This document shows, piece by piece, positions 2 through 6,813 of a DNA stretch of 64,000 bases (within the stretch, counting starts at the first letter, position 1; every line of letters starts with the position of its first letter). Made by a program: the position numbers and the translations under genes. The stretch spans positions 151,136 through 215,135 of the forward strand of contig CAVXTM010000002.1 of the NCBI GenBank assembly GCA_963764725.1, read 5' to 3'. The notes beneath the pieces were generated by a model. That model saw nothing but the letters and a program-made list of their open reading frames with translations, ran no database searches and had not been told where the DNA came from. Source of the stretch: an uncultured Gammaproteobacteria bacterium. GTDB lineage: Bacteria > Pseudomonadota > Gammaproteobacteria > JACCXJ01.

Positions 2-316
2 CGCCTCGGTGCCCGCAAGGTACTCGCCTTCCATAACGGCCGCGGAAGTCAGGAAGGCCTCTTCGCCGAGCTCAAATCCGACAATCAGCTCGACTACGTG
101 CCCACCCGTACCTGGGTCGGTAACCAGATCTACCTGCTCTCGGTGCTCCTCGCCCACAACCTCGGCCGCGAGCTCCAGATGATCGTCCATCCGCCTTCGC
201 GCACAACCCTGGAGAAACGACCCGCCCTGTGGAATTTCGCGCGCCTCGACACCCTGCGGCGTCGCCTCATCCAGCGCGCAGGCCGCTTGATCCGGCCGCA
301 AGGACAGCTCACCCTG
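2..316 (+). pseudogene. IS1380-family transposase, C-terminal fragment (cut by the window edge and truncated at its 3' end)
   Basis: Frame 2 reads ..AFHNGRGSQEGLFAELKSD..VPTRTWVGNQIYLLSVLLAHNL..TLRRRLIQRAGRLIRPQGQLTL, resembling the IS1380 C-terminal region; similarity ends at about 316. Confidence 0.75.
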
Positions 317-317
317 C

Positions 318-404
318 GGCAAAGCGTGGGAGTACCTGCTGATTCCGCATGACGTGATTGCAGACAACATGAGCTTACAGGCGCTTAGGAACCACAGCGC
401 CTAG
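318..404 (+). pseudogene. Type III restriction enzyme Res subunit, extreme C-terminal remnant
   Basis: Not in the ORF track. Manual translation GKAWEYLLIPHDVIADNMSLQALRNHSA* resembles the KPWxYLLIPHD tail of type III Res proteins. Confidence 0.55.
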
Positions 405-946
405 TCTTTCTCCGACATGGCCAAAGCCCCCGCATCCGAACGCCTGCTCATCCTGGCAAAGACGCATCCGGCGCCGAGCACGAAGCACCGGGAAATCAGT
501 TGGGTCGCGGCGGTAAATGGCGACCGCAAGCTCCGCCGTTTGTGATCCCGTTGCGCCAGACCTTCGTGTTCGTCGCGCCGGACAATGACCTCGTACAGCC
601 GATTGAGCCGGTCATTGGCCTCATCGATGCGGTGAATCACGTCGACATGAATTGCATCGATGCGCTTATTCGTCTCATCGATGCGGTGTGAAAGATCGAC
701 ATGAACGGCATCGATGCGCTTATTCGTCTCGTCGATACGGTGTATGAGATCGACATGAACGGCGTCGATGCGCTTATTCGTCTCGTCGATGCGGCGGCTT
801 TGGTCGGCTAGGTGAACGTTGATGTCGTCCAGCCGCTTATTGGTGAGTTGCAGGATAGTTTTGATTTCGGCATTTTCCGCCCGGATCTGCTTGAGCTCGG
901 GTACCACGACGTCTTGAAAAAATCTCTGTAATACGCCCATCAGCAT
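401..946 (-). CDS. Coiled-coil hypothetical protein with 18-aa tandem repeats; C-terminus probably read-through
   Basis: GGAG RBS upstream; repeats of RIDETNKRIDAVHVDLxH; the last ~48 aa lie antisense to the + strand remnant. Confidence 0.65.
   Translation of the reverse strand: MLMGVLQRFFQDVVVPELKQIRAENAEIKTILQLTNKRLDDINVHLADQSRRIDETNKRIDAVHVDLIHRIDETNKRIDAVHVDLSHRIDETNKRIDAIHVDVIHRIDEANDRLNRLYEVIVRRDEHEGLAQRDHKRRSLRSPFTAATQLISRCFVLGAGCVFARMSRRSDAGALAMSEKD
417..545 (+). pseudogene. N-terminal remnant of a conserved hypothetical protein (KTYPxPSxKY-type start)
   Basis: Manual translation MAKAPASERLLILAKTHPAPSTKHREISWVAAVNGDRKLRRL*; begins 12 nt after the Res stop. Confidence 0.4.
620..793. 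repeat. 54-bp tandem repeat, about 3 copies
   Basis: tcgatgcgcttattcgtctc recurs at 54-bp spacing and encodes the 18-aa unit. Confidence 0.85.
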
Positions 947-2470: not shown

Positions 2471-2523
2471 GAGGTTGTGAAAAAACCGTGGCGAGCGAGC
2501 GCAGCAGATTTTTTCACAAGCTC
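2471..2523. repeat. 53-bp MITE-like inverted repeat at the sdhA stop codon
   Basis: GAGGTTGTGAAAAAA..TTTTTTCACAAGCTC (14/15 inverted match) with TCA on both sides. Confidence 0.6.
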
Positions 2524-3186
2524 TCAGTACACGCGCGCCTTTGGCGGTATGACCTCGACTTCATCCGTGAGCGTACGCAGGTGTACCGGCCGGTAGTCGA
2601 AGCGCGCCTCGCCGCGTTCATCGAGCCAGGTCAACGTGTGCTTGAGCCAGTTCTCATCATCGCGTCGAGGATAATCCTCGCGCGCATGCGCGCCGCGGCT
2701 CTCGGTGCGGTTATGAGCCGCGCCTATACTCACCATCGCCTGTCCCAGCAAATTATCAAGCTCCAAGGTTTCCACTAGATCGGTGTTCCAGATGAGGGAA
2801 CGATCCGATACCCGCACTTCGGAAAAGGACTCTCGGATGGATTTGAATTTGTGAATTCCCTCGCCGAGCAGCTCCGCGCTCCTAAAGACCGCTGCGTGGT
2901 TCTGCATCACGCGTTGCATGTCCAGCCTGATCTTCGCGGTCGGGCGCGATCCTTGCGCGTGACGCAGTCGATCGAAACGTGTCAGTACGGCTTCGGTGAT
3001 TTCCTCGGGCAGCGGCTTGTGAGCCTGCCCGGGTTGGATATGGGCCGCGCAGTAGTTGGCCGCCGCGCGTCCGAACACGATGAGATCGAGCAGCGAATTG
3101 GACCCCAGCCGATTGGCGCCGTGGACGGAGACGCAAGCGCACTCGCCGATGGCCATGAGACCCGGCACGACCGCATCGGGATCGCC
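2524..3186 (-). pseudogene. sdhA: Succinate dehydrogenase flavoprotein, C-terminal part only (~220 aa)
   Basis: GLMAIGECACVSVHGANRLGSNSL, ESRGAHAREDYP and PPKARVY are present; the N-terminal part is replaced by IS fragments. Confidence 0.9.
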
Positions 3187-3282
3187 TTCCATAACGGGCG
3201 GGGCAGTCAGGAGGGTATCTTCGCCGAGCTCAAATCCGACAACCAGCTCGACTATGTCCCCACGCGTACTTGGGTCGGCAAT
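3182..3282 (+). mobile_element. ~100-bp internal IS1380 transposase fragment
   Basis: Close paralog of window positions 24-124; encodes AFHNGRGSQEGIFAELKSDNQLDYVPTRTWVGN with mostly synonymous differences. Confidence 0.85.
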
Positions 3283-3451
3283 CTTCGAGGACGATAAGCG
3301 CTGGTACCAGGTTTTTCACCTCCGCGACCAATGCTGCAATACCCGCTTCATCATTGCTAAAGCGTAGCGTGGTCCCAGAGGGGCGTATCGCCACATCCAA
3401 CACGGCCTTAGACACATCGATACCGACGAACACTGCGGTTATTTCGTTCAT
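3283..3451 (-). pseudogene. IS110-family recombinase, N-terminal DEDD RuvC fragment
   Basis: VFVGIDVSKAVLDVA..FSNDEAGI..IVLE, truncated after VLE; GGAG RBS upstream. Confidence 0.9.
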
Positions 3452-3459
3452 GCCATTGC

Positions 3460-3625
3460 TCCGTTACCCAACCTTGCAAAAATGCGGGCTCTTATGGGCC
3501 CAAGCAACTGTTCGGGTTGATTGAGAAAGGGACGTGGCGACGCACGCTCAGCGGCGGGATCATTGTCCCAAGGACGCACCGGTCTACCACGTCCATTACA
3601 ACACTTTGGCTCAAATAATTGACTG
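3460..3625 (-). ncRNA. Putative IS110 (IS621-like) bridge RNA
   Basis: Lies in the non-coding left end upstream of the recombinase. Target-binding loop is closed by GGACGTGG/CCACGTCC (3530-3594); donor loop reads ACAGTTGCT-TGG..TTGCAAGG (3472-3511). Boundaries approximate. Confidence 0.75.
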
Positions 3626-3719
3626 AAACCAACGTTGTGGATATGTGGAATCTTCCCTGATACCCACATATCCACAACCCAACAACAGAATAAATATCCA
3701 TAGAAAAGAAAGATACAAG

Positions 3720-5177
3720 GATGCAGCGATGAAGGGCGAAGGCTATCAAGTGAAGAGCAGCGGGAATGCATCTGACAACCGACCCGAGTCGGCCGTGACG
3801 AAGTCACGGGATGAACCTGCGGCTGGAGAACGGGATATGCCCGAGTCGATTCCAAACTCCGCGTTGCTCGAACGCGTGTTAGAACGCGCGAACCTGCAAC
3901 GTGCCCTCAAACAGTCAGAAGTAACCAAGGCGCGCCAGGCATCGATGGGATGACTGTCGAGGAGCTTCCGGACTATCTCCGACATCATTGGAGGGATATT
4001 CGCGCGCAACTGGTGGCAGGCACGTATCGCCCGCAACCGGTACGGCGTGTGGAAATCCCGAAGCCCGATGGACGCAAGCGTTTGCTCGGCATACCGACGG
4101 TGTTGGATCGCTTCATCCAACAAGCCATTGCGCAAGTCGTACAGGCGCAATGGGAACCGCACTTCCACCCCTGGAGCTACGGATTTCGCCCGCAACGCTC
4201 GGCCCACCAGGCCGTGCGGCAACTGCAGGCGGACATTCGCGAAGGTTACCGCTGGGTGGTGGATCTCGACTTGGAGGCGTTCTTTGACCGAGTTAATCAC
4301 GATCGGTTGGTTGCGCGGCTCAAACGATCCGACCATTCGCTACTCCGCCTGGTCAACCGCTATCTCAAGGCGGGGGTTCGCGTAGGCAGCCGTACGGAAG
4401 CGACGACGAGGGGGGTTCCCCAAGGCGGTCCGCTTTCGCCCGTGCTTGCCAACGTGGTGTTGGATGAACTCGACTGGGAGCTTACCCGGCGCGGCCACCG
4501 CTTTGCCCGCTATGCCGATGACTGCAACATTGTGGTCAAGAGCGAACGGGCAGGTAAGCGGGTGATGGCAAGTGTGACACGCTTTATCGAAGAATCGCTG
4601 CGGCTCACAGTGAATACGAGAAAGAGCGCGGTGGATCGCCCGTGGAAGCGCAGCTTCCTGGGCTTCACGGTCAGTCGCAACGAGGTCCGGCTCAAGGTGG
4701 CGGAGAAAGCCATCGACAAGCTCAAGGCCGAGGTGCGCGAACTGACCCGTCGTACACGAGGCTACCGTTTGGTGGATGTTGTGGCAGAGCTGAGAGAATA
4801 CCCTGCTTGGTTGGAAAGCGTACTTCGGCGTCGCCGAGGTGCTGAGCCCTCTGCGCGATGTCGACAAATGGATACGACGCAAGTTACGCTGCTATCAATG
4901 GAAGCAATGGGGACGAGCGGGCTATCGGGAACTGCGACGACGCGGTGTCACCGTGCGCGAAGCATGGAACCTGAGCAAGTCGGCGCATGGACCGTGGCGC
5001 CTCTCCAAGACCCCGGCGCTCACGCTGGCTCTGCCGGCGCGGTACTTCAGCGGTTTGGGACTGCCGAGTCTGGCAGCGAGCTAGGAATATGTTTCATCGA
5101 ACCGCCGTGTACGTGATCCGTATGCCCGGTGGTGTAGGAGGGGCGGGGGGCCGCGAGGCCTCCCCCTATCCCTGATT
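3720..5177 (+). mobile_element. Class C group II intron, 5'-truncated by IS110
   Basis: RT ORF followed by a short DV with CGC triad (GAACCGCCGTGTACG..CGTATGCCCGGTGGTGT) and DVI ending CCCCCTATCCCTGAT; upstream ribozyme domains not visible. Confidence 0.88.
3729..5084 (+). pseudogene. ltrA: Group II intron reverse transcriptase/maturase with two frameshifts (~3913 and ~4800)
   Basis: GAPGIDG, RLLGIPTVLDR, GVPQGGPLSP, RYADD and domain X GWKAYF..IRRKLR are split over three reading segments; no endonuclease domain; start could be 3729 or 3837. Confidence 0.9.
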
Positions 5178-5211
5178 AGTCGCGTCCGTTTCCGTTAATG
5201 TCAAATGCATA

Positions 5212-6813
5212 GGGTGTAGGTCTCAAACTGATCATCAGTGTGCCCTGGCGCCAGGGAATGCAACGACGTTATCGGGAGCCGCGACGTGGGCACAGTAGGT
5301 TTGCGCGAGCAACCGCCAACCGTGATCGAAGCGCTGGCTCTGCGCGAGCGCGCGCAAGGTCAAGATCGCTTGTCCGCCCGCATGCCGCCAACGCATTCCC
5401 GATCGTTTCATTCGTTGCGTCACCAGCGTCTTGCACGCCGCTTCCACCACACCTGAACCGATCGGCAACCCCAGCGCTTTTGCCCCCGCGTAGCCCATGC
5501 GCGCTCGATTGCGGCGGAAGTAGCCGAGCTCGGTCGCCAGCACCTTGCGGCGCGGATGCCGGTTGCGCTGATAGGCAAGTGTGCGGATCACCTTTTCGAC
5601 TCCATCGTGCTCCGCGCGCAGGATGTGCCGATAGGTCTCAAACTGGGTGCGCGCCTTCGGGGTGTTCTCCCCGTAGGCCACCGCAAACGCTGCCTTGAGA
5701 TGCTCGGCGGCGTGGTAGAAGTCGATGATCTCCTCACCCGCGGGCAGTTCATCGCTGAGGAAGGTCCAGTTGTCCTTGGCCCCGTCGGCGAGCTTGACCA
5801 CCCGCAGTCCCGGACGTTCTTGGAGCACGGTCGACACCTCCGCCGCTAGCATCGTCTTCAGGGTCGCTTTCTTCGACTCCGGCATCCGCGCCATGCGCAC
5901 CGTGCCCAGCCGCTCGCCTTCGGCATCGTGAAAGCTCAGCGTCGCACAGCCCACTTCTTGATAGCCGGCCGGTCCTTTCGTGTGCTTACCCTCGGCAACA
6001 CCCCGCTCGCGCTTAGCAGCGCGCCCCCCGTCCTTCATCGGTGTCATCACCCCATCGAGCGACACCGCCACCGTGACCGCCGCTTCGGGAATCCTCATCG
6101 CTCCGCGCAACTGCGCATCGAAGTGTTCCCGTTGCGCTTCCCACTGCGCCGAGCACTGCTTCGGCAACCGATCCAGACTGCTCTTCGAGGGACTCATGTT
6201 GCCCACTTCCCGAAACAACCCTTCGGCCTCCTGCGGGGTCAGATGCGCCACCGCCCACAGCGCTTGGCGCGCCGCGCGCGGGGTGAACTGACCGGCCACC
6301 ATACCCGCACGCAACTCCAACGGCACCACCGTCCCATCGCGACCACGGCGGTACAGCGTGCGCCACACCTTCACCGCACCCGCCGCGCTCAGGTAGGTCT
6401 CCGAACTGCGTAGCACCCGATGGTGCAGGTGCCCGTCAATCAGCAGCTGCGGCTGGTTCACATCCAGCCGCTCCAGCTCCTCGGCGAGGATCTCGCACTC
6501 GGCGTCCATAAATACGGCGTGCAACTCCTGTTCAAAGCGTTCGAAGTTCTCCTCCGCCCCACGACGGGCGCGCAGCTCCGCGACTGCCTTATGCAGTCGT
6601 TCGATCGCTGCGTTTGTGGCCGTGGCATCGTTTTGGGACGTGTGAAATACTGGCATCGGGGCAGCCCTCCGGAGTTCGTTGGATTAATGCACGACGAATT
6701 ATCCACGAGGACCACTGCCCCTTCATCTCCCTACCACCATGACAAATTGTCAGCTCACGCTACCCGAACGCAAAAAACTCCAATAAAACCAGATCAGTTG
6801 CCGATCTACACCC
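5212..6813 (-). mobile_element. Complete ISKra4/ISLre2-like insertion sequence, 1602 bp
   Basis: Terminal IRs GGGTGTAGGTCTCAAACTGATC and GGGTGTAGATCGGCAACTGATC (reverse complement); 8-bp TSD AATGCATA at 5204-5211 and 6814-6821. Confidence 0.92.
5235..6656 (-). CDS. ISKra4-like DDE transposase
   Basis: SLDGV, ADGAKDNW, DFYHAAEHL and PIGSGVVEAACK motifs. Confidence 0.88.
   Translation of the reverse strand: MPVFHTSQNDATATNAAIERLHKAVAELRARRGAEENFERFEQELHAVFMDAECEILAEELERLDVNQPQLLIDGHLHHRVLRSSETYLSAAGAVKVWRTLYRRGRDGTVVPLELRAGMVAGQFTPRAARQALWAVAHLTPQEAEGLFREVGNMSPSKSSLDRLPKQCSAQWEAQREHFDAQLRGAMRIPEAAVTVAVSLDGVMTPMKDGGRAAKRERGVAEGKHTKGPAGYQEVGCATLSFHDAEGERLGTVRMARMPESKKATLKTMLAAEVSTVLQERPGLRVVKLADGAKDNWTFLSDELPAGEEIIDFYHAAEHLKAAFAVAYGENTPKARTQFETYRHILRAEHDGVEKVIRTLAYQRNRHPRRKVLATELGYFRRNRARMGYAGAKALGLPIGSGVVEAACKTLVTQRMKRSGMRWRHAGGQAILTLRALAQSQRFDHGWRLLAQTYCAHVAAPDNVVAFPGARAH

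Follow-up and report, generated by a model that had tools for sequence, protein, structure and literature searches.

A truncated IS110-family element and its bridge RNA beside a group II intron remnant in an uncultured gammaproteobacterium

The IS110 remnant and its relatives

We analysed a stretch of 64,000 nucleotides (nt) from an uncultured Gammaproteobacteria bacterium (the window; G000:C2:151136-215135), in which part of an insertion sequence (IS) of the IS110 family lies directly beside the remnant of a group II intron. G000 is the source genome and C numbers are its contigs; L numbers are loci, G001-G014 other genomes and X numbers public sequencing runs. The region is a chain of fragments with abrupt junctions, namely a piece of sdhA, an IS1380-like piece, the IS110 piece and the intron remnant. 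The IS110 piece occupies positions 3283-3717 on the minus strand and very probably represents the dead 5' part of a bridge-RNA-guided IS, here named IS110-A, lying in its usual target repeat. It comprises a 56-codon N-terminal remnant of an IS110-family transposase (3283-3451, minus strand; PF01548, E = 0.0033, under the curated cut-off) and the non-coding left end (LE; 3452-3717, minus strand), which encodes the bridge RNA, starts with TGTATC on that strand and was recognized by alignment with eight related copies. The transposase is cut at 3283, where a 116-nt internal fragment of an IS1380-like element (DDE_Tnp_1_4; 3168-3283, plus strand) abuts the truncated IS110. This fragment was assigned by sequence identity (95% to C18:528639-528524 and to C12:373356-373471, 88% to window positions 23-122), and a Pfam match to DDE_Tnp_1_4 at window positions 2-352 supports the label. 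Contigs from other samples continue beyond 3283 with the own sequence of this IS.

A complete paralogue of IS110-A was found at C11:178539-179680. Its transposase matches PF01548 (1.1e-23), PF02371 (7.2e-18) and the NF033542 model "IS110 family RNA-guided transposase" (226 bits vs a cut-off of 140). Residues 1-56 of this protein align to the window remnant at 68% identity (tblastn), and window positions 3283-3601 share 82% DNA identity with the C11 element. In total, eight copies of IS110-A were found besides the one in the window, one in this genome (the C11 element) and seven spread over five others, and all eight start with TGTA(T/C) directly after YTGCATC-CT. The left flank YTGCATC-CT is thus found in all nine copies, and beyond it lies unrelated DNA. 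At the window, the flank on the minus strand reads ...CATCG-CTGCATC-CT-TGTATC. Here the core dinucleotide CT (AG on the plus strand) is at 3718-3719, the same place as in all nine copies, and the left target CTGCATC is at 3720-3726, both on the minus strand. The left target is made up of the first five bases of the target repeat, GCATC, and the flanking CT (3725-3726), and is identical to repeat edges elsewhere. The end of the element is at 3717 rather than 3716.

The C11 element interrupts a multicopy gene for a protein of 520 amino acids (aa), eight intact copies of which give the empty site GAGTTGCATC-CT-CGGCGCG. Compared with these intact copies, the left and right flanks of the C11 element overlap by exactly 2 nt (CT), with no further target duplication. 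The right flank of both complete copies (C11 and L177) is CT-CGGCGCGCC... (also given as CT-CGGCGCGCCAAGCAGGGCC... and CT-CGGCGCGCCAAGCAGGGCCAnTCCCTGGCCCTGGCTTTC). At the circle junction of the C11 element, the resemblance to a promoter is one of hexamers only, with a -35 hexamer TTGACT in the right end, a 17-nt spacer over the core and TACTTC in the left end; at the offset equal to that of TACTTC, the left end in the window reads TATCTT (by eye, hexamer match only). Most copies, those at C11 and L178 excepted, carry a palindromic insert of about 87-92 nt within the LE (GTTGTGGATATGTGG...CCACATATCCACAAC; window positions 3602-3688, without assigned strand), and contigs of run X2 skip 3601-3689 and those of X3 skip 3594-3687.

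Bridge RNA guides and the target repeat

A consensus fold was calculated with RNAalifold from 12 left ends, belonging to this genome and to others of the same order. It shows two modules, each built of outer and inner stems with a large internal loop between them, and contains 28 pairs, six of them compensatory. All six compensatory pairs lie in the outer stem of the target loop, while every column of the donor module is invariant, so that this module has no covariation evidence. The target-binding module (3531-3594, minus strand) holds both target guides in its internal loop; from the guide-flank matches, the left target guide is GUGCGUC-CU (3571-3579) and the right target guide CGCUGAG (3547-3553). 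The donor-binding module (3466-3519, minus strand) carries the left donor guide AACAGUUGCU (3503-3512), which equals the right-end tail ACAGTTG-CT of C11 and L177, and the right donor guide UGCAAG (3473-3478), which pairs with CT-TGTA with one G:T wobble; all four guides are on the minus strand.

The C11 paralogue carries the same arrangement together with both of its flanks. The 5' side of its first loop reads UUGCGUC-CU, and the 3' side, CGCCGAG, is the exact complement (7/7) of the right flank CT-CGGCG. In its second loop, the 5' side AACAGUUGCU matches the right-end tail ACAGTTG-CT and the 3' side UGCAAG pairs with CT-TGTA, again with one G:T wobble. L177 has the same right guide and the same right flank. 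Because the C11 guides fit both flanks and the intact host genes supply the empty site, the guide register predicted from these sequences is sound and validated by this paralogue, and the predicted window RNA is an IS110-type bridge RNA with canonical target- and donor-binding loops. In this respect the preliminary description was right: its guide strings are where it had put them (reverse complement of 3571-3580, GGTGCGTCCT; of 3547-3553, CGCTGAG; of 3473-3478, TGCAAG), the two-loop bridge RNA is borne out by the 12-sequence fold and read in the correct register in C11, and the donor guide does pair with the element end.

In the window, the left guide matches its flank at 5/7 positions by Watson-Crick pairs and at one by a wobble, in addition to the CT core. 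The match that had been proposed earlier thus stands, including its G:T wobble, but not at its proposed length, as only 7 + 2 bases act as the guide. Over the five guide classes that were found in the order, the cognate guide-flank pairs matched at 28/35 non-core positions, and none of 44 derangements reached 28. All nine copies have A in the flank where the loop encodes G. Five guide classes within one bacterial family, each fitting its own flanks, make the locus a clear example from nature of how bridge RNAs work.

Joined together, the left and right flanks of IS110-A give a repeat of about 43 nt that contains a hairpin and is flanked by TT or CT (GCATCCTCGGCGCGCCAAGCAGGGCC...CCTGGCCCTGGCT; for example at C18:213219, C10:131162, C8:3768 and window 63739-63781, C2:214874). 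A census of the genome returned 31 hits, one of which is the half repeat beside the C11 element. Of these, 27 are 41-44 nt long and three are 81 nt long, and one had no 3' end that could be found. Left flanks were TT in 20 and CT in 8 cases, right flanks TT in 20 and CT in 7. A 27-mer of the repeat occurs in 15/15 genomes of the order, with 1-38 hits each, and the reversed control gave 0. The target consensus is YTGC(A/G)TC-CT-C(G/A)GCG; of 22 sites in the genome matching TGC[AG]TCCTC[AG]GCG, 20 lie within repeat copies; for the two 13-mers that were tested as exact strings, the numbers expected from base composition are 0.18 and 0.26. The right guide of the window, CGCUGAG, differs from all others in one base (C to U) and fits exactly the CT-CAGCG variants of the repeat at C10:719 and C15:171946, so that a single base change in a guide tracks a natural variant of the target repeat.

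Filled and empty sites of the repeat were found in two gene families. Eight copies of the 520-aa gene carry the repeat, while three are without the whole 45-nt block and read GGAG-TT-CTCG; for an IS91-like gene, three copies are filled and three empty. Taken with the guides, these observations make us fairly confident that the IS110-A family is programmed for the 5' edge of this hairpin-containing repeat. The 520-aa multicopy gene, which hosts both the repeat and the C11 IS110, is found at C18:212394-213974, in at least 10 further copies and at window positions 63487-64000; it matches no Pfam or NCBIfam family and is probably a gene of an unclassified mobile element. In this gene as well as in the IS91-like transposase, the net 45-nt insert preserves the reading frame. 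Repeat copies at C10:131167, C10:137218 and C9:7526 had been suspected to lie in another intron from a nearby motif, CATAGTAG, but the gene is actually an IS91-like Y2 transposase gene.

The origin of the repeat itself was also considered. Rfam gave no match on four repeat-bearing loci, no long or full-length parent element was found beside C18:460965, the single copy with only the 5' end, and a search for a donor loop matching the repeat ends was too loose to inform (1048 hits). It is doubtful that the repeat is an active miniature element that inserts, often in frame, into genes of mobile elements and so seeds landing pads for IS110-A. As the two-base flanking repeat resembles an IS110-type core, such an element could by analogy be moved by a bridge-type recombinase. 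If true, there would be a three-tier nesting, in which an RNA-guided IS trails a tiny hitch-hiker into other parasites (the 520-aa gene, the IS91-like transposase and the group II intron). At G013:C183:3470-3844 and G009:C268:7257-7559, a copy of the repeat was seen 61-133 nt from a fragment homologous to the intron's reverse transcriptase (RT) (67-68% nt identity). Mobile debris may simply have gathered there by chance, or this may be a second association of intron and repeat.

This genome also contains a second IS110 family, with six copies (C18:74655, C18:200117, C18:332691, C10:195752, C10:250241 and C9:88169), whose amino-acid sequence is about 59% identical to that of the C11 element. 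The left end is truncated in one copy, and the left flank is different in one. The left guide CCAGCC-CU and the right guide GGGAGAG of this family fit another palindrome (CCCTCACCCyrrCC-CT-CTCCC) resembling the repetitive extragenic palindromic (REP) sequences.

The junction with the group II intron

On the other side of the target flank lies the 3' remnant of a group II intron (3727-5176, plus strand), recognized by its RVT_1 domain and its relatives, among which L132 shares 93-96% nucleotide identity with it, and consisting of the base of domain IV, an RT/maturase pseudogene and a homologue of domains V-VI. The RT (RVT_1, E = 3.5e-39) runs from GTG 3750 to a stop at 5084, with frameshifts near 3908-3914 and 4797, and is 81-87% identical in amino acids to the intact 445-aa RT of L163, the identity being spread over three frames (tblastn). 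The closest intact relatives, L132 and L121, were found by a pattern scan of metagenomes and are identical at 96/100 and 932/1000 positions to the right of CGATG. Since RF02001 and RF01998 lie directly before the RT in the relatives L132, L163, L026 and L106, and neither was matched in window 2500-6000 (E <= 1), domains I-III are missing here. L163 has an RF00029 match, scoring 36.7 bits vs a gathering score of 40, to which the region around 5100-5176 can be aligned; RF00029 gave no match in the window. Over 2500-6000, Rfam 15 (E <= 1) returned no bridge RNA or intron family, and its two matches (a CRISPR direct repeat and a long non-coding RNA) were at chance level.

In 28/37 distinct relatives, the RT is open in the frame of GTG 3750, and in 18 of those 28 a stop lies at most 48 nt upstream; as the pattern used to collect the relatives includes this GTG, its presence is given by construction and only the frame relation counts as evidence. 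An RT start at ATG 3837 was dropped, the GTG 3750 frame being open in 28/37 relatives. GAAGG at 3738-3742 is the likely Shine-Dalgarno sequence of the RT. The start at ATG 3729 favoured in the preliminary description is in frame and common to L132 and L121, and is a lineage-specific alternative; the conserved in-frame start is nevertheless GTG 3750. No intact copy of the intron was found by DNA search in this genome or among 60 relatives. The closest intron matches of a contig search, L025 and L032, end at contig edges, and a plasmid search gave only 60-80% matches to the RT body. At C10:133922-134509, only 6 nt separate a piece of domain I of the intron (83-87% to the relatives) and a 3' intron part (89% to window 4749-5179); together they look like a deletion derivative of the same intron family without an open reading frame (ORF).

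To the left of the intron, homology breaks off at a single position. We aligned contigs of four public runs from four studies to window positions 3100-4300, where the uncovered parts are uninformative. In 4/4 runs, the contigs covering the intron match from exactly 3727 (X1 record 5, X2 record 10, X3 record 21, X5 record 29); the X3 contig has 0 differences over 3727-3832 (106 bases), and in X2 the loose end of two contigs before 3727 reads ...GGCCGAAGGCCCTAA (also given as GGTAGCCCGGCCGAAGGCCCTAA). As the intron matches start at 3727 in all four runs, 3718-3726 is not intron sequence. In L132 and L121, the sequence left of CGATG is GGCCGAAGG-CGCTAA (TTAGCG on the minus strand), as compared with [IS110]-AGG-ATGCAG in the window; for L132, only 4/9 flank bases match left of the break and 96/100 right of it. 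The native intron sequence is ...CCCTAACGATG. Neither GATGCAG nor AGGATGC occurs in the 120 nt upstream in any of 71 metagenomic intron relatives, and the stretch before CGATG ends in AA in 69 of them. One intron locus, L055, does contain a 13-mer target match, though outside the homologous region and not as a copy of the repeat. Judged by these alignments, the nine bases at 3718-3726 are foreign to the intron and identical to a repeat edge with its flanking dinucleotide.

This has consequences for the idea that the bridge RNA was programmed against a hairpin and ribosome-binding site of the intron, so that the IS110 would be an RNA-guided parasite disabling the maturase. The insertion does precede ATG 3729 by 11 nt and GTG 3750 by 32 nt. 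AGGA at 3718-3721, however, read earlier as the ribosome-binding site of the RT, belongs to the foreign nine bases and not to the native intron, and the likely Shine-Dalgarno sequence GAAGG is untouched. The empty site rebuilt in the preliminary description, CGCTGAGGATGCAGCG, was not observed; its left half had been taken over from the guide and is absent from all intron relatives. Uninterrupted intron homologues lack the predicted other half, CGCTGAG, at the site in all relatives, and the left half as well (0/71 relatives; contigs of 4/4 runs). The other copies of IS110-A lie in unrelated DNA: the C11 element is in the 520-aa gene, intron-like left flanks were found for 0/7 copies in other genomes (599 nt each, blastn and tblastx against four introns), giving 0/8 in introns overall, and the exact targets of the guide are copies of the repeat. 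Both outcomes that the preliminary description had named as refuting its reading have thus occurred, and we regard an intron-programmed IS110 as close to untenable. A guide-flank match can mislead in this way, since the matched bases belong to a small repeat and not to the larger element alongside.

Instead, the repeat may have reached the intron before the IS110 did. In the proposed history, a copy of the repeat would have inserted antisense at the AA before CGATG, at the junction of intron domains III and IV; in relatives, the RF01998 match ends a few bases before this proposed insertion point, which is at the base of domain IV. The IS110 would then have entered the repeat at its programmed site, and later rearrangements would have deleted the other parts of the IS110 and of the repeat, along with intron domains I-III. 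The transposase would have been cut to 56 codons, and the RT would have gained its two frameshifts, after the IS110 insertion. The intermediate of intron and repeat would read ...GGCCGAAGGC(N)3-AA-[repeat, antisense]-AA/AG-CGATG. We consider this order of events reasonably probable, including the step in which the repeat copy was inserted into the intron rather than joined to it by an unrelated breakpoint.

In the latter case, the IS110 would have entered the repeat elsewhere, and a later rearrangement would have joined the outer flank of the repeat to a 5'-truncated intron at 3726|3727. The chain of abrupt junctions at the locus and an intron without domains I-III would fit such a course. The break nevertheless falls exactly after the AA that is found in 69/71 relatives, and AA (TT on the other strand) is the usual flanking dinucleotide of the repeat; moreover, about half of the listed repeat copies show CG outside the flanking dinucleotide (by eye), like CATCG|CT in the window. 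An unrelated breakpoint thus seems unlikely to us, though it keeps a real share of the probability. Much less can be said for direct insertion at an off-target half-match, in which the intron would natively have had CTGCATC-CT (...CGCTGAGGATGCAGCGATG; AGGATGCAGCGATG) and served as a site with the left target only. Half-site recombination by IS621 in vitro, left-target-only substrates included, is described in bioRxiv 10.64898/2026.08.31.748434, and AGG at 3718-3720 matches the relatives. Yet contigs that are 100% identical over 3727-3832 differ upstream of 3727, GATGCAG is found in 0/71 relatives, and five changes in six bases would be needed beside 96%-identical sequence, including positions that are invariant in the relatives. 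The implied right half, CT-TCGGC, fits the right guide at 1/5 positions only. Such an insertion appears extremely improbable. An assembly chimera, in which the IS110 and the intron are not neighbours in the organism, would be in line with a region made of repeats, with no public run bridging 3726|3727 and with at most 28% of the words sampled from 3100-3900 being found in any one run. Set against this, only nine bases at the joint are common with other repeat copies, too few for a k-mer mis-join, and the genome is in 19 contigs with 1.76% contamination, so we think a chimera very unlikely.

Several observations weigh against an IS110-A remnant in a repeat copy within the intron. AGG at 3718-3720 also matches the GAAGG of the relatives, which would fit direct insertion (chance about 1/64). 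The junction 3726|3727 is bridged by no public-run contig and is given by this assembly alone. Neither an intron copy with the repeat but without the IS110, nor, in the assembly, an orphan 3' part of IS110-A was found. With the right half of the window IS110 and the presumed repeat copy missing, the match of the right guide is uncheckable at the locus. Most copies have no match at the first position of the guide, and the window RNA folded on its own is no more stable than shuffled sequences (z = -0.22). Most of the comparison copies, finally, come from unpublished genomes of close kin and are not independent. The unpublished genomes are G001, G002, G005, G007, G008, G009, G010, G012 and G014, and G006 (L178), G003, G004, G011 and G013 are not among them; the flanks and guides of L177, L179, L180, L181, L183, L184, L188, L189, L190, L195, L199 and L201 come from the unpublished genomes, as does some of the 15/15 tally.

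Related systems and neighbouring features

IS4321/IS5075 and the attC-targeting IS1111 group belong to the IS110 superfamily and nest in mobile elements that bear their specific target; their guide RNA lies downstream of the transposase (seekRNA type), and the target is intrinsic to the host element. In contrast to these, the target of IS110-A is a separate small repeat and not part of the intron.

Closer parallels are found in elements aimed at repeats. For IS621 of E. coli, PMC11208160 (Durrant et al. 2024) describes a non-coding RNA that is encoded by the left end, ahead of a DEDD transposase, and has two internal loops; the 3' side of the loop is complementary to the core and the right arm, the natural target is a REP repeat, and this target has A where the loop encodes G (ATCAGGCCTAC vs the encoded ATCGGGCCTAC). 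Going by that account, IS110-A resembles IS621 in its left-end non-coding RNA, its two loops, its strand logic, a genomic repeat as target and an A where G is encoded. It differs in its guides and in a repeat of about 43 nt that is flanked by TT or CT and also lies inside ORFs. The right guide has 7 nt including the core, as compared with 4 in native IS621, and the window copy is truncated and inactive. The likeness concerns the described architecture and not a sequence comparison, with no match in Rfam 15. ISPpu9 and ISPpu10 of Pseudomonas putida are IS110-family elements for which PMC12288879 and bioRxiv 10.64898/2026.03.19.712850 place all copies in one palindromic repeat, and REP-targeting IS elements in general are treated in PMC1525189. 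As in ISPpu9 and ISPpu10 according to these sources, the copies of IS110-A all lie in one repeated palindromic sequence; unlike them, IS110-A belongs to another host lineage and uses another repeat, with filled and empty sites inside genes of mobile elements. By its predicted guides, IS110-A works like IS621, ISPpu9 and ISPpu10, with a bridge RNA aimed at a lineage-wide repeat. A literature search at listing level returned no report of an intron-targeted IS110, and the IS110-A family might already be among the natural IS110 targets in the supplementary tables of Durrant et al. 2024. The locus reveals no RNA-guided system aimed at retroelements, and only the small repeat that inserts in frame might merit further study.

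Upstream of the IS1380-like piece, the outer edge of the mosaic is formed by the C-terminal fragment of a succinate dehydrogenase/fumarate reductase flavoprotein gene (2524-3192, minus strand; PF02910, E = 5e-47; PF00890 at positions 386-414 only), with loose ends of public-run contigs at 3182 and 3190. The gene is reduced to its C-terminal third and adjoined by an intact gene for the iron-sulfur subunit (1655-2434); the sole other full-length FAD_binding_2 match in the genome is at C16:3912-5057. Downstream of the intron remnant, a 473-aa ORF on the minus strand (5235-6656) resembles an ISKra4-family transposase (189.8 bits vs a cut-off of 205), and its end recurs at C18, C5 and C9. Within another ORF (401-946, minus strand), about four tandem units of about 60 nt were seen by eye at 590-830 (...atcgatgcgcttattcgtctc.tcgat.cggtg...gatcgacatgaa.gg...).

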